Source of the DNA: Candidatus Wildermuthbacteria bacterium RIFCSPHIGHO2_01_FULL_49_22b
GTDB taxonomy: Bacteria; Patescibacteriota; Minisyncoccia; Minisyncoccales; UBA10102
Direction of reading: 5' to 3'
NCBI GenBank assembly: GCA_001823165.1
Contig: MHTT01000008.1
Span: 1-48,342 of the forward strand
DNA length: 48,342 nt
The translations under genes were made by a program, and so were the position numbers. The notes under the pieces were generated by a model that made no database searches, was not told the DNA's origin, and was given only the letters and a program-made list of their open reading frames with translations. Within the stretch, counting starts at the first letter, position 1. Each line of letters starts with the position of its first letter. Of this stretch, positions 1 to 48,342 are shown piece after piece.

Positions 1-1
1 A

Positions 2-3000
2 ACTTCAGCTGCTGTGGAACGAATGAGAATAGATAGCTCTGGCAAGGTCGGCATCGGCACTGCCACCCCGGGAGCCCTGCTCTCTGTTGCCACAGACGGT
101 GCCAACGACGCCTTCCGCATCGGAGACAATGGCGCCGGGAACATTCTTACCGTGCAGAACGGAGGCAACGTCGGCATCGGGACGGCGAGTCCGGGAACGA
201 AGCTAGAAGTAAACTTAGGGGGAGTTAGTATAACTGCTATTCGAGCCTTAAGTGGCGGTGTTAATAATTATACTGCTATAGGTATTGGAAGAACATCACT
301 AGAGGGAGCCCTCGCGATTGCAGCTGGGGCCGGACAATGGTCCAGCTTTGCCACTACTGGAGATATTATTCTGCGGTCTGACACGGAAGATTTAATTTTA
401 GGTGCCAGAAATGCTACCGGATCTCTTCGTTTTGCGACTGGCTTTCCTGATACAGAGAAAATGACAATTTTATCTGGCGGCAACGTCGGCATCGGCGACA
501 CCACCCCGGACGCTCTCTTGGAGATTGTGTCTTCCGGAGGCAAGAACCTTTTTGCCCTTACCGATACCACAGACGGAGATGTGTTTATGGTGAACAACGC
601 CGGCAGGGTGGGCATCGGAGATACCACCCCGGACGCGGCACTAGAGATTGTAACCTCCGGCACCACAGACGCGTTCCATATCTCTTCTACAGCCGCCAGA
701 GACGGAGACCTTTTTACCATTACCGCTTTAGGAAACGTGGGCATCGGGACGGCAAGCCCCGGAGTGGCTCTTGAGCTTGGAGCCGACAAATCATTCCGCA
801 TTACGGGGGGAACGGCTTTCCCCGCCTCGCCGTCTGAAGGGCAGATGTTTTTTAGAACCGACACAACCCAGCTCTATGTGTACGCCAACGCAAAATGGCA
901 GGCGGACCGGACTACGGCAACCAAGATAGTGGCTGCCAGCGACTCCAGCAACGAAGAGAAAGCCGACTATGTGGCAGACGGCACCAACGACGAGGTAACG
1001 ATTGAGGCCGCCCTAGCCGCCCTTCCGGCTGGAGGAGGCATGGTGTTTCTTTTGGAAGGAACCTACAGCATTGGGGCCGCCATAGACATAACTCAATCAA
1101 AGGTGTCGCTTGTCGGTTCAGGAAAGGCAACCATACTGCAAAGGGCCGCAAATGCCATTGACGTTATCGTGGTGGGAAACGCGGGAACCGCGTATGAGAG
1201 AGTGATTATCTCCAACCTTCAGATAGACGGAGCAAAAGCTACCCATACGAGCGGCGCGAACGATGGAATAGTTTTTAACCAGAAAATCACCAATTCAGAG
1301 ATTCTAGATACCTGGATTCACGACAATGCGGGCTCTGGCATTTATCTCTTAAGCGGCGGGACCAGCGGCACTGCCAATAACGATAATGTTGTAAGAGGCA
1401 ACAAAATTTTGTCCAACGGCGGTTATGGTCTCGTGATAGCAACTTATGGCTCCAGAAACCGCATAGAGAACAACGATATTAGCTCCAACACGAACAGCGG
1501 AATTCTTTTTTCAACCGGCGCCTATAACAATATGGCCATTGGAAATAGAATTGCCTCAAATTCCTCAAATGGAATAGAAATTGGCAGGGGAGAGGACAAC
1601 ATGATTGCGAATAATTATATTAACTCAAATACGGGAGACGGAGTGAGAATCGCAGGCGACGGCAACGACACGGCTATCATCGGCAACTATATAGAGTTAA
1701 ATACGGGCGACGCAATAGACACAACAACAGGAACCCAGGCGAGCGAACGGCACAGCATTGTATCAAACCTTATCATTGACGATATTACGCTGGGCGGCAC
1801 GGGAATACACTTGGTCTCTTCCAACCGCGTGACAGGCAATATCACCATAAACGCCAGCTCTAATGATAATTATCTTGCGGGCAACACGATTAGCGGAACA
1901 ATCACCGACAACGGCTCAAACAACGTCATTCAGCACAGCAGCCAGTTCAAAATAGAATCCACCTCTGCCACCGTGGTGCCCCTCACCATTACAGCCGATT
2001 CTCTCGCCGCGGCAAACGGCATTGCCCTTTCCGTTGACGGCCTAACCACAGGCACCGGCCTTGATATTTCTTCTACCTCTACTGCGGGAGGAGCTTCTGG
2101 CGTTTCCAAACTGATTAACCTCTCTCGGTCGGGAACCAATGCCAACGCCTCCCACACCGCCTACGGCCTGTACTCCGCGGTAACCAACACAGGGACAACC
2201 TCTACGAATATCGCGGGATATTTCTCTGCCTCCGGCGCCACAAACAACTACGCTGGTATATTTGAGAACGGAAGCGTTGGCATAGGGGATACTACCCCGG
2301 ACGCTCTCTTGGAGATTGTGTCTTCCGGAGGCAAGAACCTTTTTGCCCTTACCGATACCACAGACGGAGATGTGTTTATGGTGAACAACGCCGGCAGGGT
2401 GGGCATCGGAGATACCACCCCGGACGCTACCCTAGAGGTTGTGACGATAGGCACCACAGACGCGTTCCATATCTCTTCTACGGCCGCCGGAGACGGAGAC
2501 CTGCTTACGGTCACTGCCTTAGGAAACGTGGGCATCGGGGCGGCGAGTCCGGGAAGCAAGCTTACCATTGGAAGCGGCTCCTTTGATCTTAGCAGTCAGG
2601 GTTCCATACTTAACGTCGGCAACTCCGGCAGCGACCTTACTGACGGGGTATGGTCTGTCGCGCGCAGCAACAACCAGGCGCAGTTCAGCGTACAAACCTT
2701 TGACGACGCCGGCAACACGCCTCCTGTGCTGAATCTTGCAAGCGCCTTGAGCGACACCATAGGCACCTACACGGCGGTCACCAATACGACAGTGCTTGGC
2801 AGAATTGACTTTCAAGGAGCAGACGGCACCGGTTTTGGCACGGGAACGCGCATTGAAGGCGTTGCCACCGAGACATTCAGCGGTTCCGCCACCGGGGCCT
2901 ACCTTAGTTTCTACACTACCGATACCGGCACCAACACAAAAGACGAGCGCCTGCGCATTGACCAGGATGGGGGCATTTTCATGTATGCCATGGCCGACAA

Positions 3001-4312
3001 CTTAGTTGAAGACGGGGCAGTATGCATTTCGGGCGATGAGCTTTCAGATGAATCAGACGGCCTGTGCGATGCCTCGTCCATAAAGGTCAAGACCGATGTT
3101 CGGGACCTGGACTACGGCATTGCAGAGTTAATGCAGCTTCGTCCGGTGTTCTTCCGCTACAAGGAGGACTTCAAGCCGGACTTTCAGGCAGTGCGGGCCG
3201 GATTCATTGCCGAAGAAATGAACCTGGTTATACCCGAAGTTGTAACGTACGACAGCTACGATGAACACGGAATTCCCAACGGAGATCCTGACGGCATTGA
3301 CTACGGCAAACTGACCGCAGTGCTCACAAAAGCAATGCAGGAACAGCAAAAGCAGATTGAAGAACTGGAGCAATCGCTTCTGACTGTCGCTCAAAACATC
3401 TCTGGCGAACTGGTGAATGTGGACCCGGAATACTTCAGGCAGGGGCTTTCTTCCCTGGGTCTTGCGGTGAACACCAACGGAGTGCTGGAGGTAGACACTC
3501 TCAAAGCAAAAAAGGCGGTATTGGACACCCTTGAGTTAAAAGACCAGCTTACCGGAAAAGTATGGTGCACCTGGATTGAAAACGGAGAATGGCAAAAGGT
3601 GGAAGCAAACTGCGAGCAGATTTCGTACCTGAACGGCCAGCTTGTGATAAACGGGCAGCCCGCGGACTATGACGCCATTGCCGCGGCCAATGGCCTGGTT
3701 TTAGAGCCCCAGCCAGAGGAGCCCGCCCCTGATTCCCTTACCGACACGGTCTCTGATTCCATCTTTGACTCCACTCCCCCCATTATCTCCTTGCTCGGAC
3801 CAAGTTTGCTGGAGATTGAGCTGAACGCAGAATATGTGGATGCCGGAGCTACCGCGACAGATGACGTTGACGGCGACATTTCAGCAAACATTGCAGTAGA
3901 CAACCCAGTGGATACTTCCGTCCTTGGTGCTTATTTCGTCACCTACACTGTGTCTGATGCCGCGGGAAACAAGGCAACGCCAGCGACCCGTACCGTGAAC
4001 GTTGTAGAAGCGCTCTCTGCTCCAGAACCAGCTCTGGAACCAGAGCCAGAACCCCAGGACAGCATGCCTCCGGTCATCACTCTTCTTGGCGAAGCTGTGG
4101 TGGAGCTTGAAGTCGGTGGAATATACGAAGACGCTGGAGCCACCGCGGCAGACGATGTGGACGGAGACATCACTGCAAACATTATTGTCAGCAACCCCGT
4201 AGATACCGCTACTGTTGGCGCCTACACCGTTACCTATATCGTTTCTGACGCGGCCGGTAACGAGGCTGCCCCAGCCGCCCGCACCGTCAATGTCGTACTA
4301 AATCCGATTTAG
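2..4312 (+). CDS. Giant surface/tail-fibre-like protein, 5' partial (frame open to the window edge). Contains GNVGIGT..P repeat modules, a right-handed beta-helix (NosD/pectate-lyase-like) region, an internal peptidase-S74-like intramolecular chaperone domain, a coiled coil and two C-terminal DUF5011/Ig-like repeats.
   Basis: 1432-aa ORF with no stop back to nt 2. Recurrent GNVGIGTASPG/GRVGIGDTTPDA motifs. N/G/I-rich ~22-aa repeats (NNDISSNTNSGI, GNRIASNSSNGIEI, NNYINSNTGDGVRI) typical of parallel beta-helix. DLDYGIAELMQLRPVFFRYKED...GFIAEEMNLVIPEVV...IDYGKLTAVLTKAMQEQQKQIEELE matches the S74 chaperone-of-endosialidase pattern. Two PP(I/V)I(S/T)LLG...YxDAGATAxDDVDGDIxANI...GAYxVTYxVSDAAGN units match the DUF5011 pattern. 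Confidence 0.85.
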   Translation, partial: TSAAVERMRIDSSGKVGIGTATPGALLSVATDGANDAFRIGDNGAGNILTVQNGGNVGIGTASPGTKLEVNLGGVSITAIRALSGGVNNYTAIGIGRTSLEGALAIAAGAGQWSSFATTGDIILRSDTEDLILGARNATGSLRFATGFPDTEKMTILSGGNVGIGDTTPDALLEIVSSGGKNLFALTDTTDGDVFMVNNAGRVGIGDTTPDAALEIVTSGTTDAFHISSTAARDGDLFTITALGNVGIGTASPGVALELGADKSFRITGGTAFPASPSEGQMFFRTDTTQLYVYANAKWQADRTTATKIVAASDSSNEEKADYVADGTNDEVTIEAALAALPAGGGMVFLLEGTYSIGAAIDITQSKVSLVGSGKATILQRAANAIDVIVVGNAGTAYERVIISNLQIDGAKATHTSGANDGIVFNQKITNSEILDTWIHDNAGSGIYLLSGGTSGTANNDNVVRGNKILSNGGYGLVIATYGSRNRIENNDISSNTNSGILFSTGAYNNMAIGNRIASNSSNGIEIGRGEDNMIANNYINSNTGDGVRIAGDGNDTAIIGNYIELNTGDAIDTTTGTQASERHSIVSNLIIDDITLGGTGIHLVSSNRVTGNITINASSNDNYLAGNTISGTITDNGSNNVIQHSSQFKIESTSATVVPLTITADSLAAANGIALSVDGLTTGTGLDISSTSTAGGASGVSKLINLSRSGTNANASHTAYGLYSAVTNTGTTSTNIAGYFSASGATNNYAGIFENGSVGIGDTTPDALLEIVSSGGKNLFALTDTTDGDVFMVNNAGRVGIGDTTPDATLEVVTIGTTDAFHISSTAAGDGDLLTVTALGNVGIGAASPGSKLTIGSGSFDLSSQGSILNVGNSGSDLTDGVWSVARSNNQAQFSVQTFDDAGNTPPVLNLASALSDTIGTYTAVTNTTVLGRIDFQGADGTGFGTGTRIEGVATETFSGSATGAYLSFYTTDTGTNTKDERLRIDQDGGIFMYAMADNLVEDGAVCISGDELSDESDGLCDASSIKVKTDVRDLDYGIAELMQLRPVFFRYKEDFKPDFQAVRAGFIAEEMNLVIPEVVTYDSYDEHGIPNGDPDGIDYGKLTAVLTKAMQEQQKQIEELEQSLLTVAQNISGELVNVDPEYFRQGLSSLGLAVNTNGVLEVDTLKAKKAVLDTLELKDQLTGKVWCTWIENGEWQKVEANCEQISYLNGQLVINGQPADYDAIAAANGLVLEPQPEEPAPDSLTDTVSDSIFDSTPPIISLLGPSLLEIELNAEYVDAGATATDDVDGDISANIAVDNPVDTSVLGAYFVTYTVSDAAGNKATPATRTVNVVEALSAPEPALEPEPEPQDSMPPVITLLGEAVVELEVGGIYEDAGATAADDVDGDITANIIVSNPVDTATVGAYTVTYIVSDAAGNEAAPAARTVNVVLNPI
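500..765 (+). repeat. Intragenic direct repeat, copy 1 (~265 bp) inside the giant surface protein gene
   Basis: accccggacgctctcttggagattgtgtcttccggaggcaagaacc... recurs at offset +1791. About the first 130 nt are identical by eye and the rest is diverged. Confidence 0.9.
2291..2556 (+). repeat. Intragenic direct repeat, copy 2
   Basis: Same sequence as 500-765. It encodes the duplicated module TTPDALLEIVSSGGKNLFALTDTTDGDVFMVNNAGRVGIGDTTPDA. Confidence 0.9.
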
Positions 4313-4338
4313 CTATCCCCACCTAAATCGGATTTAGG
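4298..4338. repeat. REP-like palindrome doublet (family C) immediately upstream of the RayT-like gene
   Basis: ctaaatCCGatttag (4298-4312) and cctaaatCGGatttagg (4322-4338). Each is a 7-bp-arm perfect palindrome, and the two differ only in the central base (opposite orientations). The first copy contains the TAG stop and the last codons (LNPI*) of the giant protein. Confidence 0.85.
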
Positions 4339-4382
4339 ATATAGGGGAAACAGAGTCAGTAGATTAGAATATAATATAAAGC

Positions 4383-5099
4383 ATGCCAAGAACAAAACCA
4401 GAAAAGGGAAAAATCTACCATATTTTCAACCGTGGCGTAGAAAAGCGGAACATCTTTATATCCGAAGGAGATCGCTGGAGATTTTTGCAGGGGATGTATT
4501 TGTTTAATAATGAAGATTCCACCACAAATCTTCTCTATCGTCTTGAGCAAAGAAAGGGCAAGATGCATTTTGGCATCCTGCGAGATTATATGCAGCGAGA
4601 AGGCGTTAAGCGCAAGCCCTTGGTACGCATTATGGCAGATTGCCTTAAGCATAATCACTTTCATTTTAGCATTGAAGAAACTCAAGAAAACGGCATTTCC
4701 CGTTTTATGCAAAAGCTGGGTATTGGATATACAAAATATTTTAATAAAAAATATGAGCGCGTAGGACCGCTGTTTCAAGGAAAGTTTAAACTGGTAGAGA
4801 TACAAAGCGATGCGCAGCTTATGTATCTTATTGCCTATATTAATGCGATTAACCCCGGCCAAGAGTTAGAGCCAGAACTAAAATCAGTAGCGCAAGATCC
4901 AGAGCAAATCCTTGAGTTTATTCAACATTACCCATGGAGTACTCATTTGGAGTATTTGGGCAAAAGAGATTCTATTATTATAGATAAAGGTGTTGCGGGA
5001 GAATTATTTGGTACCCCAATTGCTTACCGAAAGTTTGTAGAAGATATTGTAAAAGGCAAAAAAAGTTTTGGTTTGTCAAAGAAAGATTTTCTTGAGTAG
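4383..5099 (+). CDS. IS200/IS605-like Y1 (HUH) transposase of the REP-associated RayT type (COG1943-like)
   Basis: YHIFNRGVEKRNIF N-terminus. HUH motif in CLKHNHFHFSI. GPLFQGKFK and the LIAYINAINP Tyr helix. HYPWSTHLEY tail. Flanked on both sides by the same palindrome doublets. Confidence 0.8.
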   Translation: MPRTKPEKGKIYHIFNRGVEKRNIFISEGDRWRFLQGMYLFNNEDSTTNLLYRLEQRKGKMHFGILRDYMQREGVKRKPLVRIMADCLKHNHFHFSIEETQENGISRFMQKLGIGYTKYFNKKYERVGPLFQGKFKLVEIQSDAQLMYLIAYINAINPGQELEPELKSVAQDPEQILEFIQHYPWSTHLEYLGKRDSIIIDKGVAGELFGTPIAYRKFVEDIVKGKKSFGLSKKDFLE

Positions 5100-5101
5100 T
5101 T

Positions 5102-5138
5102 CCTAAATCCGATTTAGTTTTACTAAATCGGATTTAGG
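5102..5138. repeat. REP-like palindrome doublet (family C) immediately downstream of the RayT-like gene
   Basis: cctaaatCCGatttag (5102-5117) and ctaaatCGGatttagg (5123-5138), in the same CCG-then-CGG order as the upstream doublet. Confidence 0.85.
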
Positions 5139-5153
5139 AGAATTAGGAGAATT

Positions 5154-5969
5154 ATGAGAGAAATTTTAGAAAAAGTAAAAAATGGGGTGCTGGACGCGGT
5201 ATTTCCGGCAACCTGCATGGGTTGCGGTAGAGAAGGAAAGTATATCTGCCAAAGGTGCGAAGGTTTTGTAAGCGAAGTTGCTTTCATCTGCCCAGTATGT
5301 GAACAGTCGAGTTTTGCCGGAGAGCGGCACCAAACCTGCAAATCGTTCTATGGTTTTGATGGTTTGGTAAGCATTTGGGAATACGAGGGGCTCATGAAGA
5401 GTTTACTGCATTATATAAAGTACAATGGCATTACCCATGCTGCCAAAGAAACCACGGAGCGCGCATTTGAGGTGATTGGGCGCGACAGAGAACGATTTGG
5501 CGCATTTTTATCTTTTTTGTTATCTCAAGATACTTTTGTGACGTATGTGCCCATGTTCAAGAAAAAAGAGAGAAAAAGAGGGTTTAACCAGGCGGAGATA
5601 CTTGCAAGAGAGCTTGGAAAAATAGCCGGGAAAGAAACTCTTTGCGCCTTAGAGAAGATACATGATACAAAACCGCAGGTTGAGCTGAAGAAAGAAGAAC
5701 GGCTGGTAATCGTACAAGGCGCCTTTCAGACAACATTGCCCGCCTTTGCCGACCTGCCTGCTGGCAAGGTGGGGGCTTTGGCGGGCAGGCAAATTACAAA
5801 TCCAGACAATCAATTATCAATGGTCAATCATCAATGGTCGGCACCGCAGAAAGTGGTGCTGGTAGATGACGTGTGGACCACAGGAGCTACCATGAAAGAA
5901 TGCTGCAGGGTTTTGAAAAGGGCTGGCGCCAAAGAAATATGGGGGCTTACTATCGCAAGAACCCCCTAA
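5154..5969 (+). CDS. comF: ComF-family protein (phosphoribosyltransferase-like competence protein) carrying a ~30-40 aa extra segment
   Basis: N-terminal CxxC...CxxC zinc finger. RGFNQAE, VQGAF and VVLVDDVWTTGAT PRTase motifs. SD aggaga lies 5 nt upstream of the ATG. Confidence 0.85.
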   Translation: MREILEKVKNGVLDAVFPATCMGCGREGKYICQRCEGFVSEVAFICPVCEQSSFAGERHQTCKSFYGFDGLVSIWEYEGLMKSLLHYIKYNGITHAAKETTERAFEVIGRDRERFGAFLSFLLSQDTFVTYVPMFKKKERKRGFNQAEILARELGKIAGKETLCALEKIHDTKPQVELKKEERLVIVQGAFQTTLPAFADLPAGKVGALAGRQITNPDNQLSMVNHQWSAPQKVVLVDDVWTTGATMKECCRVLKRAGAKEIWGLTIARTP

Positions 5970-6040
5970 ATTTTCAATCAATGACCCAATTTCACAATTT
6001 TTCAATTGAACATTAAAACATTGATAATTCATTGAAAATT
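5967..6040. repeat. AT-rich TIR-bounded miniature element (family E), copy 1. It fills the comF-dprA spacer.
   Basis: Begins taaattttcaat (the TAA is the comF stop) and ends cattgaaaatt. aaattttcaat and attgaaaatt are reverse complements. It shares the blocks cccctaaattttcaat, caatgacc.aattt and tgataatt...cattgaaaatt with 43185-43271. Confidence 0.7.
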
Positions 6041-6046
6041 AGTGTC

Positions 6047-6952
6047 ATGGCTGACAGTATAACTAAAGAAAGTCCTCGATACCCAACACTACTCGGTGAA
6101 CTTAGGGACGCGCCAAAGCAGCTGTATTATAGGGGAAATTGGGACGGGATTTTTTCCGTCGAAGGCGGATCCGCCTCTGGCGGAGAAAAATGCCTGGCGG
6201 TTGTAGGCACGCGGAGAATGACCAGCTATGGAAAGCGCATGACCGAGCAGATCGTGGGTGAGGTTGCTGCGGCCGGGGTGACCGTTGTTTCTGGTTTTAT
6301 GTACGGTATTGATGCTGAAGCCCACAAAGCAGCTTTGAGAGCCGGCGGCAAAACCATTGCCGTAATGCCCTGCGGAATTGACGTTGTGCACCCAGAATAT
6401 CAGGCGGACTTATATCAAGAGATTTTAGATACGGGCGGCTTAGTGGTTTCAGAATACGAAGGCACGCATCCTGCTTTGTATTGGACGTTTCCACGCCGAA
6501 ATCGCATTGTAGCAGGCCTTTCAAAGGCAACGCTGGTAGTGGAGGCCGGTGAAGACAGCGGAGCATTGATTACCGCAGACCTTGCTAAAAAATACGGCAG
6601 AAAACTCTTTGCCGTGCCAAATCCTTTAACGAGCGCGGTTTCGCAAGGAGTAACGCGGTTGCTAAAAGAGGGTGCAACGATTGCAAGCAGCGCAGACGAT
6701 ATTTTGAAGTATTTTGGGTTTCGTACGCGGAGTAGGGTCAGACCCTACTCGCAAGTAGGGTCTGACCCTACTCCGCAGATTGCAGGCGAACTTGAGCAAA
6801 AGATTATGCAGGTGCTTTTCAAGGAATCAATGCAGATTGACGCGCTTGCCAGAAAACTTAAGATACCGGCAGCGCAGCTGGGAGCCGCAATTTCCATGTT
6901 GCAGTTGGAAGGATGCATAACAGAAGAACAGGGCAAATTATATGTTGTTTAA
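6047..6952 (+). CDS. dprA: DNA processing protein DprA
   Basis: LAVVGTRRMTSYGKRMT, VVSGFMYGIDAEAHKAAL, FPRRNRIVAGLS and a C-terminal winged-helix-like tail. The ORF is open from TTG 6032 but ATG 6047 is the more likely start. Confidence 0.9.
   Translation: MADSITKESPRYPTLLGELRDAPKQLYYRGNWDGIFSVEGGSASGGEKCLAVVGTRRMTSYGKRMTEQIVGEVAAAGVTVVSGFMYGIDAEAHKAALRAGGKTIAVMPCGIDVVHPEYQADLYQEILDTGGLVVSEYEGTHPALYWTFPRRNRIVAGLSKATLVVEAGEDSGALITADLAKKYGRKLFAVPNPLTSAVSQGVTRLLKEGATIASSADDILKYFGFRTRSRVRPYSQVGSDPTPQIAGELEQKIMQVLFKESMQIDALARKLKIPAAQLGAAISMLQLEGCITEEQGKLYVV
6727..6776. repeat. Family B palindromic doublet translated in frame within dprA
   Basis: gcggaGTAGGGTCaGACCCTACtcgcaaGTAGGGTCtGACCCTACtccgc. 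It is two 8-bp-arm hairpin units and the whole 50-mer is nearly self-complementary. It encodes [17 protein letters not shown] in the linker between the Rossmann and winged-helix domains. Confidence 0.85.
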
Positions 6953-8474
6953 GGTGCAATCTGCAGCAAACTCGGGACTGGAGGCACTCGGGGTGGACAT
7001 TGAAATAAGCGTTTCAAACAGGGGGTTGCCGGGTTTTGACATTGTGGGGCTTCCCGACAAGGCCGTTCAAGAAAGCAAGGAGCGGGTGAGAGCTGCCATT
7101 GGAAATTCAAAAATTGAGTTTCCTCAAAGAAAAATTACCGTAAACTTGGCGCCAGCCGATATTCCCAAAGAAGGCTCTCTGTACGACTTGCCCATAGCAG
7201 TGGGAATTATGGCCTCGGTTTTGCAATATGAGATTCCCCCAAACAGCTTATTTTTGGGAGAGCTTTCTTTAGACGGCAAGCTTCGCCACACAAAAGGGGC
7301 CGTACTTATGGCGCTTTTTGCAAAAGAACAGGGATTTCAAAATGTGTTTGTTCCAGCAGAATCCGCAAACGAGGCAGCTATTATTCAAGGCGTAAACGTG
7401 TACGGAATAAAAAACCTTACCGAAATAGCCGGACTTTTCTTGGGTAAATCTTTTTTGCGGCCCGTTGCTTACCAGAAAAAAGAAGAGCTCACTGAGGATA
7501 TAGAGTTTGACATGGCAGAAGTACTTGGCCAGGAAACCGCCAAGCGCGCCGTAGAGATAGCTGCCGCCGGCGGCCATAATATATTAATGATAGGAAGCCC
7601 TGGTTCCGGGAAAACCATGCTGGCGCGGGCCTTGCCAGGCATTTTGCCAAGGTTAAATGAAGAAGAGTCCTTGGAGGTTACGAAACTCTATTCTATTGCA
7701 GGGAGCATGCCGCCCCGGGGATCTCTTATCACCACGCGCCCTTTTCGCTCGCCCCATCACAGCGTTTCTCAAATTGGGCTGATAGGAGGCGGTCAAAAAC
7801 CGCAACCTGGAGAAATAAGCTTGGCTCACCGAGGGGTCTTGTTTTTAGACGAGTTTAACGAGTTCCCTCGGTCTGTATTAGAAGGTCTCCGCCAACCCGT
7901 AGAAGACGGCGCGCTTACCATTTCAAGAAGCAAAGAACGAGTAACCTATCCTTGCCGTTTTATGTTGGTGGCGTCTGCAAATCCTTGTCCGTGCGGATAC
8001 TTAAATCACCCAAGGAAACCCTGTGTCTGCACTCCTCGAGAGATAAAAAAGTACCGGAAGCGAGCATCCGGCCCTATTTTAGAGCGCATTGATTTGCATG
8101 TTGAAGTGCCGGAGGTTGACGTGGAAGAGTTTCGCGGCAATCAAAAGTCCACGAGCGCCGCAGAAAGCTCTTGTTCTATTCGGGAACGAATGAGCGAGGC
8201 GCGAAAAATCCAAGAAACAAGATTTGCAGAAGAGTCCATCTATACGAATGCAGAAATGAAAAACGCGCATATTAAAAAATACGCCGCACTTTCAAAAGAG
8301 GCCGAGCAGATGGTACTACGGGCTGCGCTTCAATATCAGCTTTCTGCAAGGTCATTTATGAAAATGATAAAGATCGCCCGCACCATTGCAGACCTTGCCT
8401 TTGAGCAACAGATTGGAAAAGAACACATGCTCGAGGCCTTGCAGTATCGCCCCAAGATATATGAGTTGGACTGA
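6942..8474 (+). CDS. comM: YifB/ComM-family Mg-chelatase-like AAA+ ATPase
   Basis: 510 aa. Walker A IGSPGSGKT, Walker B VLFLDEF, a Lon-protease-like N-terminal domain and ALQYRP near the C-terminus. It overlaps the dprA stop by 11 nt. Confidence 0.92.
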   Translation: MLFKVQSAANSGLEALGVDIEISVSNRGLPGFDIVGLPDKAVQESKERVRAAIGNSKIEFPQRKITVNLAPADIPKEGSLYDLPIAVGIMASVLQYEIPPNSLFLGELSLDGKLRHTKGAVLMALFAKEQGFQNVFVPAESANEAAIIQGVNVYGIKNLTEIAGLFLGKSFLRPVAYQKKEELTEDIEFDMAEVLGQETAKRAVEIAAAGGHNILMIGSPGSGKTMLARALPGILPRLNEEESLEVTKLYSIAGSMPPRGSLITTRPFRSPHHSVSQIGLIGGGQKPQPGEISLAHRGVLFLDEFNEFPRSVLEGLRQPVEDGALTISRSKERVTYPCRFMLVASANPCPCGYLNHPRKPCVCTPREIKKYRKRASGPILERIDLHVEVPEVDVEEFRGNQKSTSAAESSCSIRERMSEARKIQETRFAEESIYTNAEMKNAHIKKYAALSKEAEQMVLRAALQYQLSARSFMKMIKIARTIADLAFEQQIGKEHMLEALQYRPKIYELD

Positions 8475-8482
8475 AAAAATAT

Positions 8483-8845
8483 ATGAGAGTACACAATATG
8501 ATAGGAGAGAGAGGGGAGGAGATTGCGCGCCAGTTTTTGGAGAACAAAGGATATACAATTATTGAGTGCAATTACAGGACAAAGAGAGCAGAAATTGATA
8601 TCATTGCAAAACATAAAAATAAACTAGTGTTTGTGGAGGTGCGAACAAAGCACCGCGAACAATACGGAACCCCAGAAGAAACTATTGATTATAAAAAACG
8701 CATGAGATTGAAAAAGAATGCCGCAGCTTATGTCCATCGAAAGAAATATTATGGGCCTTTTCGCATAGACGCCGTATGTCTGGTACTAGATGAGAACGCG
8801 GGGCTCCAGCGGATTAACCACTATGAAAACATTGTGGAAAACTAG
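8483..8845 (+). CDS. yraN: YraN-family (UPF0102) putative endonuclease
   Basis: GERGEEIARQFLENKGYTIIECNYRTKRAEIDIIAK...VFVEVRT...IDAV pattern. ATG 8498 is an alternative start. Confidence 0.85.
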   Translation: MRVHNMIGERGEEIARQFLENKGYTIIECNYRTKRAEIDIIAKHKNKLVFVEVRTKHREQYGTPEETIDYKKRMRLKKNAAAYVHRKKYYGPFRIDAVCLVLDENAGLQRINHYENIVEN

Positions 8846-8905
8846 GCGAGACCAAGGATTCCTTGGTCTCGCCTAAGAGCTAAAACTAAGGAGCTCATGG
8901 GAACA
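8762..8905 (+). repeat. 144-bp direct repeat, left copy (yraN 3' end, hairpin, and start codon of the next ORF)
   Basis: Identical to 10847-10990 except one mismatch (8790 t versus 10875 c) by my alignment. Contains the 13-bp-stem hairpin ggcgagaccaagg-att-ccttggtctcgcc (8845-8873). Confidence 0.9.
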
Positions 8906-10257: not shown

Positions 10258-10773
10258 ATGACTTCTCTCAAGAAGGGCGGGGAAAAGGAGAATAAAAATA
10301 ATCCCCAGTACCTGCCCACCGATTCAATGAAAAATAATATGAACAAGTTTATCTACAGGCCCATTAAGTTTAATCGGATAACCCAGATTTTCGGAGAGAA
10401 CAAAACAGATTACTCCAAACTTGGTATGCTCGGACATAATGGTCTTGATATGGCTACCTGGAATGGGACACCAATATATCATTCTGGTGACTATATGGGT
10501 TATATGAAGACAGAAATTGATGCAATGGGTGGCATAGGAGTAGATATCTATTCTAATACTCCCCAGATTGATGGAAAACGTATCAAATTGCGTTATTGGC
10601 ACTTAAAGCAAGTTGTAGGGTGGGATGGAAAAGAAGTGCGACCAGGACAACTTATAGGTTTTGCTGATAATACTGGATTTTCAACAGGAGACCATTTATA
10701 CTTTGATTTAAAATGTGTAGATGAGAATGACAAAACATCACGAACAATACGGAAGCCCGGAAGAAACCATTGA
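10258..10773 (+). CDS. M23/LytM-family peptidase-like protein (endolysin-like), 3' end running into the yraN-like fragment
   Basis: GHNGLDM (HxxxD) and NTGFSTGDHLYFDL. The usual HxH reads HLY, so it is possibly degenerate. The C-terminus is read out of the yraN-homologous DNA in another frame. Confidence 0.55.
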   Translation: MTSLKKGGEKENKNNPQYLPTDSMKNNMNKFIYRPIKFNRITQIFGENKTDYSKLGMLGHNGLDMATWNGTPIYHSGDYMGYMKTEIDAMGGIGVDIYSNTPQIDGKRIKLRYWHLKQVVGWDGKEVRPGQLIGFADNTGFSTGDHLYFDLKCVDENDKTSRTIRKPGRNH

Positions 10774-10930
10774 TTATGAAAAACGCATGAGACTGCAGCG
10801 AAACGCAAGAGCGTATATTCACCGAACAAAGTACCGCGGCCCATACCGCATAGACGCCGTATGTCTGGTACTAGACGAGAACGCGGGGCTCCAGCGGATT
10901 AACCACTATGAAAACATTGTGGAAAACTAG
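10722..10930 (+). pseudogene. Displaced, duplicated 3' fragment of a yraN-like gene
   Basis: It encodes ...HEQYGSPEETIDYEKRMRLQRNARAYIHRTKYRGPYRIDAVCLVLDENAGLQRINHYENIVEN, parallel to residues ~53-120 of the intact YraN. The N-terminal catalytic part is absent. Confidence 0.8.
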
Positions 10931-10990
10931 GCGAGACCAAGGATTCCTTGGTCTCGCCTAAGAGCTAAAACTAAGGAGCTCATGGGAACA
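10847..10990 (+). repeat. 144-bp direct repeat, right copy
   Basis: See 8762-8905. The hairpin copy is at 10930-10958. Confidence 0.9.
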
Positions 10991-15562: not shown

Positions 15563-15586
15563 ATGTGTGAAACCTGGTTTCACACA
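15563..15586. repeat. Family D palindrome, copy 1, 11 nt after the stop of the TPR protein
   Basis: atgtgtgaaacctggtttcacaca is identical to 42247-42270. The arms tgtgtgaaacc/ggtttcacaca are perfect reverse complements. Confidence 0.9.
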
Positions 15587-18997: not shown

Positions 18998-19085
18998 GAA
19001 ATCCTAAATCCGATTTAGAGAAATCCTAGATTTAGTAAGAAATCCTAAATCCGATTTAGTAAGAAATCCTAAATCCGATTTAGAA
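18988..19085 (+). repeat. Tandem array of family C REP-like palindromes in the rpoB-rpoC spacer
   Basis: cctaaatccgatttag at 19003-19018, 19044-19059 and 19068-19083, with a degenerate copy at 19024-19035, at ~24-nt period (aagaaatcctaaatccgatttagt). All are in the CCG orientation. The rpoB TAA stop (18995-18997) lies in a partial unit aaatcctaag. Confidence 0.85.
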
Positions 19086-19125
19086 ATTTTAGAAATTAGA
19101 ATTTAGAGTTTTAGTTTTAGCATAC

Positions 19126-26169: not shown

Positions 26170-26292
26170 AGATTTTACTGCGTAAAAGAAATTACAAATT
26201 CAAAGCACCAAATTCCAAACGCTTTTGGTTTGTGATTTGTGGTTTTGGTCATTGTAATTTGTTTGTAGTTTGGAATTTGTAATTTGTGATTT
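26170..26292 (-). repeat. Family F intercistronic element (ssb-rpsR spacer)
   Basis: The reverse complement is colinear with the groES-groEL spacer. It has a CA-rich tract (aaatcacaaa...), then gcgtttggaatttggtgct(t/g)tgaatttgtaatttcttttacg(c/a)agtaaaa directly before the ATG. Inverted termini are aaattacaaattc.../...tttggaatttgtaattt. Confidence 0.8.
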
Positions 26293-28088: not shown

Positions 28089-28101
28089 GGCCTTGACCAT
28101 C

Positions 28102-28137
28102 ATAACACTAATTTGACGGTCGTCTCTCTAATGTTAT
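28102..28137. repeat. Left ~35-bp terminal inverted repeat flanking the PaaX/Cas2-like gene
   Basis: ataacactaatttGACGGTCGTCTCTctaatgttat. Its reverse complement aligns with 28704-28738 (13-bp perfect core plus the outer ataaca/tgttat arms). Confidence 0.8.
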
Positions 28138-28146
28138 TTTGGGGAT

Positions 28147-28707: not shown

Positions 28708-28738
28708 CACAAAAGAGACGACCGTCGCATTAATGTTA
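28704..28738. repeat. Right ~35-bp terminal inverted repeat flanking the PaaX/Cas2-like gene
   Basis: ataacacaaaAGAGACGACCGTCgcattaatgtta. It overlaps the TAA of the PaaX-like gene (28705-28707) and the TAA of the convergent trpS (28736-28738). Confidence 0.8.
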
Positions 28739-36229: not shown

Positions 36230-39157
36230 ATGGCACAGGATTTCATTAAAATCAGGGGAGCACGGGTTCACAACCTCAAGAACATTGACGTTGATATCCC
36301 CAAGGGCAAGCTTGTGGTGATTACCGGGCTTTCCGGGTCAGGGAAAAGCTCTCTTGCCTTTGATACTCTGTATGCTGAAGGACAGAGAAGGTACGTTGAG
36401 AGTTTGTCCGCATACGCGCGGCAATTCCTGGGCGTCATGCAAAAGCCCGATGTGGATTCCATTGAGGGCATTAGTCCTGCCATTGCCATTGACCAGAGAA
36501 AGGGAGCTCACAACCCTCGTTCTACCGTTGGGACCATTACGGAGATATATGACTATCTCCGTCTTTTGTTTGCAAGGATAGGAGTTCCGCACTGTCCCAA
36601 CTGCGGCAGGGAAGTCAAGCGCCAGTCGGTTTCCTCCATTGCAGACCAGGTGCAGAAACTTCCCGCCAAAGACGAGATTGCCATTCTTGGTCCTGTAATC
36701 AGGGAGAAAAAAGGGGAGCACCGGGGAGTTTTAGAAGAAATCCAGCGTTCCGGGTTTGTGAGGGCTCGCATTGACGGCATTGTGGAGCGCGTTGAAGAGG
36801 CCCTGGAAAAGGAGTTGGACCGCAAAAAGAAGCATTCCATTGAAGTGCTCGTGGACCGGCTAACCATAGACAAGGATCTGGACCGCCCCCGCCTCATCGA
36901 TTCTTTAGAGACCGCCTTAAAGCTTGGGAAAGGGCTGGTGATTGTGCGGGCACAGTCACCAACAATTGACAATTCACAATTAACAATTAGCAAGAAGAAT
37001 CGTCGTCAAAAGTCAACAGTCAATAGTCAAAAGTCAGGAGAAGACCTGGTCTTCAGCGAGCGCTTTGCCTGCGAGCAATGCAGTATTTCCCTGCCAGAGA
37101 TTGAGCCGAGAATGTTTTCTTTCAACTCTCCCTTTGGGGCGTGTCCTGCGTGCCAGGGATTAGGAGAAAAGCTGGAGGTTGATCCCAAACTGGTGATTCC
37201 CAACCCCCGGCTTTCCCTTGCCGAGGGCGCCATTTTCCCCTGGGCGCACGCTTCCCATAAGATAGGACGCCAGGGATTCTTTTGGTGGAAACTGGAAGAC
37301 CTGGCGAAAGAAAGGAAGTTTTCTTTGAATACTCCAGTAGAGGAGCTTTCTCCTAAAGTCATTAGCCTGGTCTTGCAAGGAGATAGAGGGTTTGCCGCCC
37401 GCAGAAGCGGGCGAGCCTCACCCGCCTCTGAAGAGGCGAGGTGGGAAGGAGTGATTCCCTGGCTGGAACGAAGATACCATGAGACCGACTCTGAATACGC
37501 CAGGGAAGAGATTGAGCAGTATATGATAGAGCGCTTGTGCGAAATGTGCCAGGGAAAGAGGTTGAAACCCGAGGTGGTGGCGGTAACCGTGGGGGCAAAG
37601 TCCATTCACGGGGTCGTAAACCTGCAGCTCAACCGCGTCAAAGAGTTTTTTGGCAAACTCTTCTTGAAAGAGCATGAGAAAAAGATAGCAAGCCCCATTG
37701 TAAAAGAGATTGTGAATCGCCTTCAGTTTTTAATTGATGTGGGCTTGGAGTATCTCACCCTGGCGAGAAAAGCCGCGACCCTGTCAGGAGGAGAAGAACA
37801 GAGAATACGGCTCGCCACCCAGATTGGCTCAAAGCTTACTGGGGTCTTGTACATATTGGACGAGCCCTCTGTCGGTTTGCATGCCAGAGACCAGCATCGC
37901 CTCATTGCGACCTTGCAGCAATTGCGCTCTTTGGGCAATACCATTGTAGTAGTAGAGCATGACCCCCAAACCATACGGTCAGCTGACTGGGTGGTGGATA
38001 TTGGCCCTGGAGCAGGAAAGCACGGGGGCCGTGTCACTTTTACCGGAACGCCAAAACAGCTGCTCAAGTCGCGCACACTTACCGGAGATTACCTAGCGGG
38101 GCGCAGAACTGTTCAGATAAGCAAAGTAGGGTCAGACCCTACTCGGGTGAGTAGGGTCAGACCCTACTCACAGCTGATTGTCCAGGGGGCAACGCACAAC
38201 AACTTAAAGAACATTGACGTTGCAATACCGCTGGAAAGGATGGTGTGCGTGACCGGGGTTTCAGGGTCTGGCAAAAGTTCTCTGGTCAGCGATATTGTGG
38301 CAAAAGCCCTGCTGCAGAAGTTCTACAGGGCAAAGGAAGAACCGGGAGAGCATAAGGCAATTTTAGGCACGGAGCATCTTAACAAGGTGGCGCTGGTGGA
38401 CCAGTCGCCCATTGGCAGAACTCCGCGTTCCAACCCCGCAACCTACACAGGGTCCTTTTCTGTCATACGGGATTTGTTTGCTTTATGCAAAGAGGCCAGG
38501 GTGCGGGGCTACAAGCCGGGAAGATTTTCTTTTAATGTAAAGGGAGGAAGATGCGAGTCCTGCGAGGGCCAGGGGCTAAAAAAGATTGAGATGTACTTTT
38601 TACCGGACGTGTATGTGGAGTGCGAGGAATGCCAGGGACAGCGATACATGAAAGAGGTCCTGGAGGTGGAATACCGAGGCAAAAACATTGCCCAGGTTCT
38701 GGCAATGACCGTGGAGGAAGCCCTGGCGTTTTTCAGAAACATTCCCGCCCTGACAGCGAAGTTGAAGACCTTAAACGACGTGGGACTCTCGTATGTGGAG
38801 CTGGGACAGCCCGCCCCCTCCCTTTCTGGGGGAGAGGCCCAGCGAGTAAAGCTGGCAACCGAGCTTGCAAAGAAAGCAACAGGAAAGACCCTGTACATTC
38901 TAGACGAGCCAACCACGGGTCTTCATTTTGACGACGTGAAAAAACTGCTTCAGGTGTTGGGGGAACTGACGGACAAGGGAAACACGGTATTGATTATTGA
39001 GCACAATCTTGATGTGGTGCGCAATTCGGACTGGATTATTGACCTGGGACCAGAGGGAGGAGAAAAAGGGGGGAAATTGGTCGCAGAGGGAACCCCAAGA
39101 GATGTTGCCAAAATAAAAAAGAGCTATACGGGGCAGTACTTGCGTAAGTTCAGCTGA
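36230..39157 (+). CDS. uvrA: Excinuclease ABC subunit A, carrying two in-frame repeat insertions
   Basis: Two ABC modules ([51 protein letters not shown]), zinc modules (CPNCG, CEQC...[12 protein letters not shown]...CEECQGQRY), 975 aa. Confidence 0.97.
36963..37036 (+). repeat. Family A heptamer-array hairpin element translated within uvrA
   Basis: caa TTGACAA TTCACAA TTAACAA TTAGCAA gaagaat cgtcgtc AAAAGTC AACAGTC AATAGTC AAAAGTC a, encoding [25 protein letters not shown]. Confidence 0.85.
38125..38168. repeat. Family B palindromic doublet translated within uvrA
   Basis: aGTAGGGTCaGACCCTACtcgggtgaGTAGGGTCaGACCCTACt, encoding [17 protein letters not shown]. These are the same two peptide readings as in dprA but in swapped order. 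Confidence 0.85.
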
Positions 39158-39385
39158 TTTGGTATGATTTTTGTAGATTTTTCTCGGAGATGCATATAAG
39201 GCGCGGGACATCCTTTCGCGGAATGTTACCCCTGCGCTAAAGGACATCCGCAAGATGCTATCGTGGATCTTTCCGCCTTTGCTTTTTGCCGCAGGTGCTT
39301 TGCGACTTGGAACCCAGACCCAGAGGCGAGACCTTCTGAAAAACGAGGATGGATAAGGAGATTCTTCGGATGGCACAGCTCTTGA

Positions 39386-39419
39386 CCCCCACCCTTTGCA
39401 TTTATGCAAAGGGTGGGGG
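39386..39419. repeat. Perfect 16-bp-arm palindrome upstream of the groES promoter
   Basis: cccccaccctttgcat-tt-atgcaaagggtggggg, followed by ttgactttttt. Confidence 0.85.
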
Positions 39420-39447
39420 TTGACTTTTTTGCGGGGCTGTGTAAGAT
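39420..39447 (+). promoter_or_regulatory. Candidate sigma-70 promoter of groES-groEL
   Basis: TTGACT, 16-nt spacer, TAAGAT, located just upstream of the CIRCE-like inverted repeat. Confidence 0.5.
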
Positions 39448-39816: not shown

Positions 39817-41586
<1,770 letters not shown>

Positions 41587-42246: not shown

Positions 42247-42270
42247 ATGTGTGAAACCTGGTTTCACACA
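42247..42270. repeat. Family D palindrome, copy 2, between the lemA stop and the htpX start
   Basis: atgtgtgaaacctggtttcacaca, identical to 15563-15586. Confidence 0.9.
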
Positions 42271-42281
42271 TCCTTGAGCTT

Positions 42282-43187
42282 GTGAATATCTACTCGCACG
42301 CTGAAGCAAACACAAGAAAAACATGGTTGTACCTTCTGGGGTTTTTTGTCTTTGTGGTTGCGATTGGCTGGTTCATGAGTTATGCCTTAGGCAGTCAGGT
42401 CATCTTGTGGATTGCGGTTGGTTTGAGCATTGTCATGAGCTTTGGTTCTTTTTGGTATTCAGACAAACTGGTGCTGTCTTTATCGCATGCAAAACCCATT
42501 GAGAAGAAAGATGCCCCCGAATTGTACCGTATGGTGGAGAATTTGAGCATCACGGCAGGACTGCCAACGCCGCGAGTATTCATTATCCAGGACGCGCAGC
42601 CCAACGCTTTTGCAACAGGCAGGGACGCAAAGCACGCCGTGGTGGCAGTAACCACGGGTTTGTTCAGTCGTTTGGAGCGCACCGAGCTGGAAGGAGTGCT
42701 TTCCCACGAACTCTCCCACATTGGCAACAAGGATATGCTGGTTTCCACGGTTGTGGTGGTTTTGGTTGGCGTGGTGGTTTTGCTTGCAGATCTTTTCTTT
42801 CGCCTTGCCTATTTTGGAGGCATGGGAGGGCGAAGCGATAGAGGAGGAGGGCAGGCAAGGATCGCGCTCATTCTGATTGCGCTCGCCTTCCTTATCCTGG
42901 CCCCCATGCTGGCCCAGGCAATGAAGTTTGCCATTTCCCGGAAACGCGAGTTTCTGGCCGACGCTTCCGGAGCCCTTCTCACAAGGTATCCTGAAGGCCT
43001 GGCCTTGGCCCTAGAAAAGATTTCAAGCGACCCGCACCAGTTAAAATCCGCCAACGACGCCACCTCCCATCTATATATTGCAAATCCGTTTAGGGGCAAA
43101 GAGCAGAAGAGCTGGATTCACAAACTATTCATGTCGCATCCGCCGGTAGAGGAGCGCGTCAAGGCATTGCGCGGTATGCGCCCCTAA
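42282..43187 (+). CDS. htpX: M48-family zinc metalloprotease HtpX
   Basis: GTG start, HELSHI zinc motif, four TM helices, EFLADASGALLT, SHPPVEERV. Confidence 0.93.
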   Translation: MNIYSHAEANTRKTWLYLLGFFVFVVAIGWFMSYALGSQVILWIAVGLSIVMSFGSFWYSDKLVLSLSHAKPIEKKDAPELYRMVENLSITAGLPTPRVFIIQDAQPNAFATGRDAKHAVVAVTTGLFSRLERTELEGVLSHELSHIGNKDMLVSTVVVVLVGVVVLLADLFFRLAYFGGMGGRSDRGGGQARIALILIALAFLILAPMLAQAMKFAISRKREFLADASGALLTRYPEGLALALEKISSDPHQLKSANDATSHLYIANPFRGKEQKSWIHKLFMSHPPVEERVKALRGMRP

Positions 43188-43271
43188 ATTTTCAATTATC
43201 AATTTCCAATTTTTAATCAAACCCCAATGACCAAATTTTTAAACAGTCTGATAATTGAAGCATTGAAAATT
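43185..43271. repeat. AT-rich TIR-bounded miniature element (family E), copy 2
   Basis: It starts at the htpX TAA (cccctaaattttcaat...) and ends ...cattgaaaatt. It shares blocks with 5967-6040. Confidence 0.7.
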
Positions 43272-43303
43272 CACTGAAGATTGAGAATTGCAAATTGAGA
43301 ATT

Positions 43304-47666: not shown

Positions 47667-47669
47667 CTG

Positions 47670-47698: not shown

Positions 47699-47714
47699 GG
47701 CACTGCTATCATAT

Positions 47715-47999
47715 TCCGCGGTAGCTCAGCTGGTAGAGCGGCTCGCTGTGAGTAAAGTTGCAGCTTCTTGGAGCAATCCAGGTTGAAAAACGGGGTTAAT
47801 TGCGGGAAACCTAAAGCGAAAGCCAAGGCAATCCGCAGCCAAGGGATGTAACATTTTGCCTTGCAAAATTGTACGTTCAAGGTTCAGAGACTATACGCCC
47901 CGCACCCCTTTGGGGTGATGAGATAGTCCACGCCAGTATGAAAGTATTGGGTTGCGTGTAACGAGATGGTCGTAGGTTCGAATCCTACCCGCGGAGCCA
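47715..47999 (+). tRNA. tRNA-Asn(GUU) interrupted in the anticodon loop by a group I intron. Exons are 47715-47749 and 47959-47999 (CCA encoded).
   Basis: The spliced product is UCCGCGG UA GCUC AGCUGGUA GAGC G GCUCG CUGU|UAA CGAGA UGGUC GUAGG UUCGAAU CCUAC CCGCGGA G CCA. U1-A72, G73 and overall similarity to bacterial tRNA-Asn support the call. One 27-43 mismatch. Confidence 0.85.
47750..47958 (+). ncRNA. Group I self-splicing intron (209 nt, tRNA-intron/IC3-like, no ORF)
   Basis: The canonical core elements are all present: P aattgcgggaaa (~47798), Q aatccgcagc (47830-47839), R gttcagagacta (47882-47893) and S agatagtcc (47921-47929). P1 pairs exon gcugU (47745-47749) with IGS Gcagc (47760-47764), giving a U-G wobble at the 5' splice site. 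The intron ends in G (47958). Confidence 0.88.
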
Positions 48000-48342
48000 A
48001 ATAGGATGATACGAGTTCTCCGCCTCGGGGCTTCGCCCCTCGGCGGGCAAATCGGCGAGAATTTTCCACGACTTTTTGGGTTCAAAGCAAATCGCTTGCA
48101 AGCGCAAAACGCGGTTCGCCGCGCGAAGCGCCGAGGCAACAAACTCACAACATACAATTTGGCTCCGAACGCTGAACGAAATCCGAACATTTTTTAGCGA
48201 AAATCCGAACGCTGAATTTTGACGCTCCGCCCCGCCGCCGCTCGCTACCACTCGCCGCACTACAGAAAAATACTCTTTGCTCTTTTCGTTTTGCGCGCGC
48301 CCAATTTTTTCTTCTAAAAGGAAAAGAATGTTTTGCTTGGCT

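Follow-up and report, generated by a model that had tools for sequence, protein, structure and literature searches.

The analysed stretch

The stretch of DNA analysed here (the window) covers 48,342 nucleotides of contig MHTT01000008.1. Judged by its sequence, it is part of the genome of an ultra-small groundwater bacterium, Candidatus Wildermuthbacteria, which belongs to the Parcubacteria of the Candidate Phyla Radiation (CPR). Its RpoC matches a protein of a Candidatus Wildermuthbacteria RIFCSPH metagenome-assembled genome with 100% identity, whereas an exact look-up of its RecA gave no record. It begins with the gene of a large repeat protein, followed by an open reading frame (ORF) for a Y1 transposase-like protein, comF, dprA, yifB, yraN and the genes of two tetratricopeptide repeat (TPR) proteins. 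Also encoded are rpoB, rpoC, ftsK, recA, rpsR-ssb-rpsF, trpS and RNase J, as well as uvrC, uvrA, groES-groEL, lemA, htpX, dnaG and a sigma-70 factor. Short repeats lie between and within these genes, and their nature, their spread and their relationship to the transposase-like gene are the subject of this work. The GC content of the window is about 50%, so this is not an AT-rich reduced genome; the original prediction, made from the sequence of the same stretch, had presumed a reduced one.

That prediction had listed seven repeat families, A to G. All seven are located where they had been placed, far above chance, and the data support them as genuine dispersed repeat families. They are not seven unrelated kinds of sequence, as had been thought, but represent two architectures. 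The simple palindromes of families B, C and D stand alone, in inverted doublets or in tandem groups; B and C are of the repetitive extragenic palindromic (REP) type, and D probably is too. Families A, E, F and G consist of runs of 7-nt units, mostly two different runs that face each other across a spacer. Two smaller arrays, in comF and rpoB, add to the list. Perfect palindromes with a stem of at least 9 bp number 16 in the window versus 1.2 in shuffled sequences, and there are five exact heptamer arrays where none is expected. A period of 7 accounts for 17 of the 49 Tandem Repeats Finder rows in the 48 kb. Tandem 7-nt units thus exceed both chance and other periods, as in arrays of the short tandemly repeated repetitive (STRR) type. 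The tendency to fold, expressed as a z-score for DNA folding, is uneven across the families, a correction to the earlier picture of hairpins throughout. It is strongest for the B doublets (-8.6 and -10.8), the C doublets (-6.8 and -8.2) and G (-6.5), intermediate for D and F (-3 to -6) and weakest for A and E (-1.3 to -3.7).

For comparison, 317 loci or contigs were fetched, which are referred to by L-numbers. L001-L003 are assemblies of this same region, while L007-9, L249, L250, L251, L252 and L317 represent relatives or other lineages. The RpoC proteins of the nearest other relatives are about 85% identical to that of the window.

The transposase gene and its palindromes

The product of the transposase-like gene upstream of comF (Table 1) matches Pfam family PF01797 (Y1_Tnp) with 25.4 bits against a cut-off of 23. 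Both histidines of its HFH motif (H92 and H94, residues 92-94) and the tyrosines Y148 and Y152 are invariant among 37 homologues. The top fold match in the PDB for its AlphaFold2 model (pLDDT 84) is 4ER8_A (E 3.7e-4, probability 1.0), the REP-associated tyrosine transposase (RAYT) of E. coli bound to a REP hairpin, followed by the TnpA proteins of IS608 and ISDra2. In addition, Additional file 5 of Di Nocera et al. 2013 (PMC3733652) provided a set of sequences for a BLASTP comparison with the protein. The best matches are published tyrosine transposases associated with terminal inverted repeats (TIRYTs) from Geobacter, Desulforudis, Stenotrophomonas and Rhodopirellula (220-240 aa, E 2e-16 to 1e-13), and no canonical E. 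coli or Pseudomonas RAYT of that set is matched. For this reason the product is placed, by sequence, with the TIRYTs. Pfam, fold and BLASTP together bear out the predicted RAYT-like Y1 transposase. Homologues with E below 1e-5 number about 4000; those with a name come nearly all from Parcubacteria, and the top matches are 66-79% identical.

The gene is bracketed by two inverted doublets of family C. Seven units of C (CTAAATCSGATTTAG) lie in the window, at three loci, versus none in 100 shuffled sequences. All are extragenic save one, which forms the last codons and the stop of a gene: the first unit of the upstream doublet supplies the TAG stop of ORF 14-4312. An orthologue of the transposase gene is syntenic in four other lineages (L007-9, L250, L251 and L252), between a giant surface protein and comF-dprA-yifB-yraN. 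The last three share the longer order giant protein-Y1_Tnp-comF-dprA-yifB-yraN-TPR-TPR-rpoB. In three of these four lineages the orthologue has its own palindrome on both sides, namely CCTAAGC...GCTTAGG (L250), CTAAAC...GTTTAG (L251) and AACTTGGCCCGACCAAGTT (L252). A second transposase gene in L252 is accompanied by yet another palindrome, TGTTGAAGATAATCTTCAACA. The C-like stems of different lineages (CCTAAATC.GATTTAGG, CCTAAGC...GCTTAGG and CTAAAC...GTTTAG) differ by compensatory paired changes that keep the hairpin. One relative, GCA_022563395.1, has C-like doublets at at least eight loci in 43 kb.

In the window (4383-8845) and in L007-9, L250, L251 and L252, the Y1 gene is always the first gene of the comF-dprA-yifB(ComM-like)-yraN cluster. 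It therefore adjoins genes of DNA uptake and single-stranded DNA processing.

Family B is associated with a transposase of its own. Its unit is a 17-nt palindrome (GTAGGGTCWGACCCTAC) present in the window as four exact units in two doublets, versus none in 100 shuffled sequences. The repeat classes of Di Nocera et al. carry an unpaired GTAG (or CGTC) tag at one end of the stem-loop. The unit of B opens with GTAG, which pairs with CTAC at the opposite end; C has no such tag. A variant of B in a relative, GGGGTCAG, fits the GGGGWSAS motif described for terminal inverted repeats (TIRs) by Di Nocera et al. A paralogous transposase of 237 aa, 36% identical to that of the window (E 3e-41), is encoded on L143, L232 and L142. 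On several metagenome contigs its gene comes with three B units, one on each side and one inside. Palindromes of their own on both sides are thus found for the genes of L250, L251, L252 (two genes), L143 and L142. The tetranucleotide profile of L142 correlates with that of the window at r=0.94, equal to the correlation between the two halves of the window. For this reason the predicted single mobilising enzyme, which holds within the window, probably fails for the genome as a whole, which probably encodes a second one.

The heptamer arrays

The three copies of family A are 84-90% identical over about 77 nt, non-repetitive spacer included. They share this spacer as well as the same substitution in unit 2, which supports dispersal as whole units. 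The two F copies are likewise similar beyond their repeated parts: their cores (26173-26288 and 39831-39946) are 86% identical over 116 nt, and identity ranges from 86 to 91% over 94-116 nt. At the start-codon end of both F copies lies a small hairpin, TTTTACGNAGTAAAA (39920-39946 and 26173-26190). The groES-groEL spacer of L317, an unrelated Parcubacterium, contains it again in the form GTTTTTACGAGGTAAAAAC (around position 7400). The A-type unit contains TTGACA. This is the -35 hexamer of sigma-70 promoters.

Similar units are found in distant genomes. A scan of a genome collection with the family A pattern returned mostly cyanobacteria among the matches listed. Among these, GTCAAAA runs are frequent in heterocystous cyanobacteria, with scattered occurrences in Chloroflexota and Patescibacteria; some of the runs form hairpin pairs. 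Runs of ACAATTG occur in 62 viral contigs of IMG/VR (L255-L316; 29-65% GC), with several arrays per contig. These are often inverted pairs with a facing array such as (TCCATTG)n, or stand with further heptamer runs directly before an ATG.

Table 1. Transposase gene and repeat elements of the window
Feature	Position	Strand	Setting and remarks
RAYT/TIRYT-like Y1 (HUH) tyrosine transposase	4383-5099	+	238 aa; Pfam, conserved residues, fold, BLASTP, synteny
B doublet (GTAGGGTCWGACCCTAC x2)	6724-6776	+	translated within dprA; 23-bp stem, z -10.8
B doublet	38118-38170	+	translated within uvrA
C inverted doublet	4296-4340		upstream of transposase gene; z -6.8
C inverted doublet	5100-5140		between transposase gene and comF; 18-bp stem, z -8.2
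C array	18995-19107	+	three same-orientation 24-nt units (18995-19084) and one degenerate unit, then TTAGAAA heptamers; fills rpoB-rpoC spacer
D palindrome, 24-25 nt	15563-15586		11 nt past stop of TPR gene
D palindrome, 24-25 nt	42247-42271		between lemA stop and htpX start
A: (ACAATTG)n, spacer, (GTCAAAA)n	22094-22177	+	translated within rpoC
A	36960-37036	+	translated within uvrA
A	34585-34664	-	translated within uvrC; register as in the other two A copies
G: (TTTGTAT/CTTGTAT)n facing (ATACCAG/ATACAAG)n	35343-35427	-	hairpin translated within uvrC; z -6.5
E: AAATTTTCAAT ... ATTGAAAATT	5964-6042	+	starts on comF TAA stop (5967-5969)
E	43183-43275	+	starts on htpX TAA stop (43185-43187)
F	26170-26292	-	between ssb stop and rpsR start
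F	39817-39948	+	between groES stop and groEL start
ATCAATG-type heptamer array	5791-5839	+	in 29-aa insertion within comF, separate from E
(AAAATCC)x2.6 array	16611-16635	+	within rpoB, at a site with other inserts in relatives

Insertion sites, turnover and reading frames

Relatives at about 85% RpoC identity share the gene order of the window and have none of families A to D at the syntenic sites. Clean junctions were obtained against relatives for F, D, E and the C array. Blocks of about 80-133 nt are inserted at junctions that are only 1-3 nt long in relatives. The gap between ssb and rpsR, occupied by F in the window, measures 2-3 nt in L009 and L010, and the groES-groEL gap, with the other F copy, 1 nt in L249. 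The latter also lacks D at the lemA-htpX junction, and its htpX is separated from the next gene by 22 nt versus about 110 nt in the window, where E is present. In L009, comF and dprA overlap, as do rpoB and rpoC, leaving no spacer where the window has E and the C array, respectively. D, E and C are all located about 0-11 nt from stop codons. Differences in presence or absence between close relatives, a check suggested with the original prediction, also exist at the strain level. A second tandem D unit of 69 nt is present at the 15563-15586 site in three (L001-L003) of the four assemblies that cover it.

Within proteins, the elements occupy variable positions. The A copy in RpoC takes the place of a short variable loop, and the A and B copies in UvrA fall between conserved blocks. 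In dprA, the site of the B doublet is occupied in L009 by an equally long C-like doublet. The B site of UvrA (site 2) bears B-like units in relatives, in which GGGG/CCCC stems replace the TAGG/CCTA stems of the window, a compensatory change. At site 1, A-type elements are found in UvrA proteins that are only 71% identical (in L317, an A-rich spacer separates (ACAATTG)n from (GTCAAAT)n) and are lacking in proteins that are 81% identical. Other lineages carry different heptamer-coded inserts there. Either new insertions keep arriving at such sites, or old ones are removed precisely.

That several families would be translated within core genes had been predicted, and the reading frames agree. They are open across the elements in RpoC, UvrA, UvrC and DprA, as well as in ComF and RpoB, and the host proteins align on either side of A, B and G, which implies that these elements are translated. 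In each A copy a single one of the six frames is open, and it is the frame used, with the same register in all three genes (TIDN-QLTI..KK...). An uninterrupted ACAATTG consensus run would create an in-frame TGA, which the shared substitution in unit 2 removes in all three copies. For the B doublets, one or two frames are open, including the one in use. Predicted peptides of the translated inserts include TIDNLQLTIDKK and VGSDPT.

Occurrence beyond the window

Contigs whose tetranucleotide profile correlates with that of the window at r>0.9 were treated as having the same composition. On such contigs B occurs within tatD, mnmA and the gene of a lamin-tail-domain (LTD) protein, so that the genes that harbour it are dprA, uvrA, tatD, mnmA, the LTD protein gene and the paralogous transposase gene. 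There are at least six B loci in about 105 kb, in a sample that was chosen by searching for B. One window-like contig has a (TTTGTGC)x8 array within leuS, and L177 carries an A-like pair. The expectation that the families extend beyond the window is therefore supported for B and A-like elements and not for C and D, for which no copy was found in the other fetched loci; for this reason C and D may be low-copy.

In a metagenome scan, B was found on more than 119 contigs among the matches listed (L130-L248; 37-73% GC). The exact 17-nt GTAGGGTCWGACCCTAC is spread over this whole range of GC contents, an unusually wide distribution, and is usually lengthened by a few complementary flanking bases. 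Viral contigs gave two B matches only, with no sign of carriage by phages.

Origin and maintenance of the repeats

The explanation favoured here, with a probability of roughly 60%, is that two kinds of short repeats have colonised a few permissive sites, that the palindromes are tied to RAYT-like enzymes, and that selection filters the copies. The permissive sites would be junctions directly after stop codons or directly before start codons and variable protein linkers. B and C, and probably D, would each be paired with their own RAYT-like Y1/HUH transposase of the TIRYT type. This enzyme may recognise the hairpin in single-stranded DNA, cut and rejoin the DNA beside it, and thereby copy the palindromes to new sites. 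Recognition and cutting of hairpins by the putative transposase would be expected by analogy with TnpA-REP of E. coli and the enzymes of the IS200/IS605 group. Families A, E, F and G, together with the arrays in comF and rpoB, would be dispersed as whole units, after which slippage varies the number of units. Selection would keep only copies that spare the gene, either outside the coding sequence or with a single stop-free frame in a surface linker. In this way the translated copies in the essential rpoC, uvrA, uvrC and dprA can be explained, because selection leaves only those copies that do not break the protein.

Several observations weigh against this explanation. The curated NCBIfam RAYT model NF047646 (REP_Tyr_transpos), the only family model that matches the protein besides Pfam's, gives 17.9 bits against a cut-off of 80. 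That cut-off is not reached either by the B-associated paralogue of L143 (47.4) or by the second L252 gene (23.8). A phmmer search of the PDB sequences returned no match for the transposase even at E 10. No flanking palindrome is found in the part fetched of L007-9, and in L009 none lies 3' of the transposase gene. Patterns of C and D were found, among all 317 fetched loci, in this region's own assemblies only, and no copy occurs in about 55 kb of further same-genome-like sequence. The assignment of L142, L156, L176 and L177 to the same genome was made by tetranucleotide similarity alone. The heptamer families lack a linked transposase, and family A folds weakly (z -1.4 to -3.7). Where the empty sites of relatives allow a comparison, the clean junctions show no target-site duplication. 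The same heptamer units in unrelated genomes, and the same protein sites struck repeatedly across lineages, fit local generation as well as transposition.

Local generation would mean that families A, E, F and G are not mobile and arise by replication slippage and hairpin-templated repair at structurally permissive sites, and that copies are alike through gene conversion or because expansion starts from the same seeds (TTGAC-type units) and takes the same course. In many bacteria no other long simple repeats are as abundant as heptamers, for which an origin by polymerase slippage has been proposed (Mrazek 2007, as cited in PMC4679880 and PMC4692102). Arrays of GTCAAAA or ACAATTG in cyanobacteria, Chloroflexota and 62 viral contigs, and sites in UvrA, RpoC, RpoB and the rpoB-rpoC junction that bear different arrays depending on the lineage, agree with such an origin, as does the lack of a target duplication and of a linked enzyme. 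It is nevertheless considered unlikely. Independent expansion does not readily account for the non-repetitive spacer, arm order and unit-2 substitution common to the three A copies, for the similarity of the F copies in their non-repeated parts, or for the fact that junctions of 1-3 nt in relatives are filled by entire blocks of about 80-133 nt.

The repeats might instead serve the host as signals under selection, namely as DNA-uptake sequences, as hairpins past stop codons for RNA stability or termination, or as translation enhancers before rpsR and groEL. The Y1 gene keeps its place beside competence genes in five lineages, and the repeats are located in DNA repair and recombination genes. 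The uptake sequences of Neisseria and Haemophilus are reportedly biased to genes of this kind. D, E and C lie close to stop codons, and F stands directly before starts that lack a Shine-Dalgarno motif, like the TAACTGA repeat of Beggiatoaceae (PMC4679880). However, an uptake signal would need approximately one motif per kb, whereas B has four units in the 48 kb and no family exceeds seven, far too sparse a distribution, so the uptake reading was rejected. The sequences are also lineage-specific and absent from relatives at about 85% RpoC identity that have the same genes and operons. D has no T-run and is thus no canonical terminator; E and F were rejected as terminators on the same ground. 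Altogether, a signalling function appears improbable, more so than a local origin of the heptamers.

There is next to no chance that the repeats are collapsed or misjoined artefacts of assembly, a concern raised together with the original prediction. The window does come from a metagenome-assembled genome, and many homologous transposase genes sit on contigs of only about 1 kb. Six contigs of separate JGI and ENA assemblies nevertheless reproduce the region at 99.9-100% identity through the repeats, and this agreement excludes an artefact. Moreover, the elements leave the frames of essential genes open, and other organisms carry related elements at the same sites of the proteins.

In a more far-reaching and rather doubtful variant, the TIRYT-like gene would be a domesticated, vertically inherited part of the competence and single-stranded DNA cluster, with hairpins that serve the host and intragenic copies as a by-product, and the paired heptamer elements would form a distinct self-propagating class. 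If so, the co-evolving hairpins would help the host to handle single-stranded DNA that enters the cell or is being replicated. The heptamer class, with unit types common to cyanobacteria and phages, would, in streamlined genomes, repeatedly rewrite both the junctions between cistrons and the linkers of essential proteins.

Colonisation of permissive sites by two kinds of repeats, the preferred explanation, bears on several aspects of CPR biology. In very small and tightly packed genomes little room for repeats is expected, yet they persist at stop and start junctions and within the linkers of RNA polymerase, UvrA, UvrC and DprA. They provide a natural record of protein sites that tolerate 17-30 extra residues and may explain some lineage-specific insertions in CPR core proteins. 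Such translated insertions put lineage-specific segments into the alignments of marker genes. The repeats probably also fragment CPR assemblies, as the many homologous transposase genes that lie alone on contigs of about 1 kb suggest.

Other features of the region

The giant ORF 14-4312, which is cut by the start of the window, contains 286-nt internal repeats (478-763 and 2269-2554, 90% identical) and shorter repeats spaced 123 nt apart; independent assemblies break near there. A direct repeat of 261 nt (8645-8905 and 10730-10990) is 87% identical overall and 99% over its last 144 nt. It consists of the duplicated 3' end of yraN and a 33-nt perfect palindrome, TAGGCGAGACCAAGGATTCCTTGGTCTCGCCTA. 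Between its copies lie about 1.8 kb with two ORFs of unknown function and an M23 peptidase gene, whereas in relatives yraN directly adjoins the TPR gene. At this spot, beside a truncated yraN, L252 has its second Y1 transposase gene.

An ORF of 186 aa (28147-28707) with a PaaX central (Cas2-like) domain is bracketed by 43-nt inverted repeats that are 84% complementary (28099-28742). It is absent from L009 and L010, in which the flanking genes abut, and together with its inverted repeats it looks like a small mobile cassette. After uvrA, a GC-rich hairpin of 17-19 bp with a T-run (39382-39423) is a candidate intrinsic terminator outside all repeat families. It is directly followed by a promoter-like TTGACT-16-TAAGAT ahead of groES (whole span 39382-39447). 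A group I intron (Rfam RF00028, 92.5 bits, 47740-47950) splits a tRNA gene at 47706-47995 that ARAGORN did not call. At the gathering thresholds of Rfam, the matches in the whole window are two tRNAs and this intron only, and no repeat is matched.

Comparison with known systems

Repeats in the uvrA gene and other repair genes were described in 2013, and for this reason the phenomenon is not called a new system; it is already known elsewhere in bacteria. Di Nocera et al. (PMC3733652) reported intragenic REPs, often in genes of excision repair and recombination, uvrA and uvrB among them (for example, uvrA of Opitutus terrae and Thioalkalivibrio, and uvrB of Rickettsia conorii). In these, REP dimers encode 20-30 residues, repeat ends supply stop codons, and repeat-specific transposase genes exist. 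TIRYT genes are bracketed by inverted repeats, some of which are self-complementary and able to form repeat families. The supplements of that paper contain neither the B core nor the B peptide, and a literature search found no paper that ties RAYT or REPIN to Patescibacteria or CPR.

As in TIRtrons with their TIRYTs and REPtrons with their RAYTs, a Y1/HUH gene at a fixed position has palindromes on both sides, and the same palindromes occur elsewhere as singles, doublets or tandems. The repeat differs from paralogue to paralogue, TIRYTs are the closest in sequence, and the E. coli RAYT with REP DNA is the closest in fold. Unlike in the published cases, the host belongs to the CPR/Parcubacteria, the gene always heads comF-dprA-yifB, the protein scores below the curated RAYT cut-off, and copy numbers look modest. 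RAYTs of the REPIN-RAYT systems (Bertels and Rainey, bioRxiv 10.1101/2021.07.10.451892) are single-copy, syntenic and vertically inherited, and REPINs are almost exclusively extragenic, whereas most of the B copies seen here are intragenic. In this respect B resembles the intragenic REPs and the Rickettsia palindromic elements (RPEs), and the original comparison with the latter proves apt. In each case in-frame palindromes, often dimers that code for 20-30 aa, are found in genes of replication and repair such as uvrA and uvrC. Sequence families and hosts differ (the RPEs were compared by description only), and in the window heptamer elements are translated too.

The heptamer families resemble the STRR-type arrays of cyanobacteria, TAACTGA in Beggiatoaceae (PMC4679880) and GGGAATC in Xanthomonas (PMC4692102). 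All of these are short, over-represented 7-nt arrays, sometimes in inverted pairs, as reported for GGGAATC, often before starts without a Shine-Dalgarno motif, as reported for TAACTGA, and occasionally within ORFs. In contrast to them, a spacer joins two different arrays into a defined element of about 80-130 nt, probably copied as a whole; in family A this element is adapted to a single frame and lies inside three essential genes. Like miniature inverted-repeat transposable elements (MITEs), for example the Correia elements, the repeats of the window are small, non-coding, hairpin-forming, dispersed and co-transcribed with their neighbours. They differ in having no parent insertion sequence and in the weak terminal inverted repeats of E and F, and a MITE reading was set aside for the lack of a target-site duplication at the F, D and E junctions. 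What departs from the published picture is therefore the host lineage, the constant place of the transposase gene beside competence genes, the high intragenic share of the copies and the frame-adapted heptamer elements.

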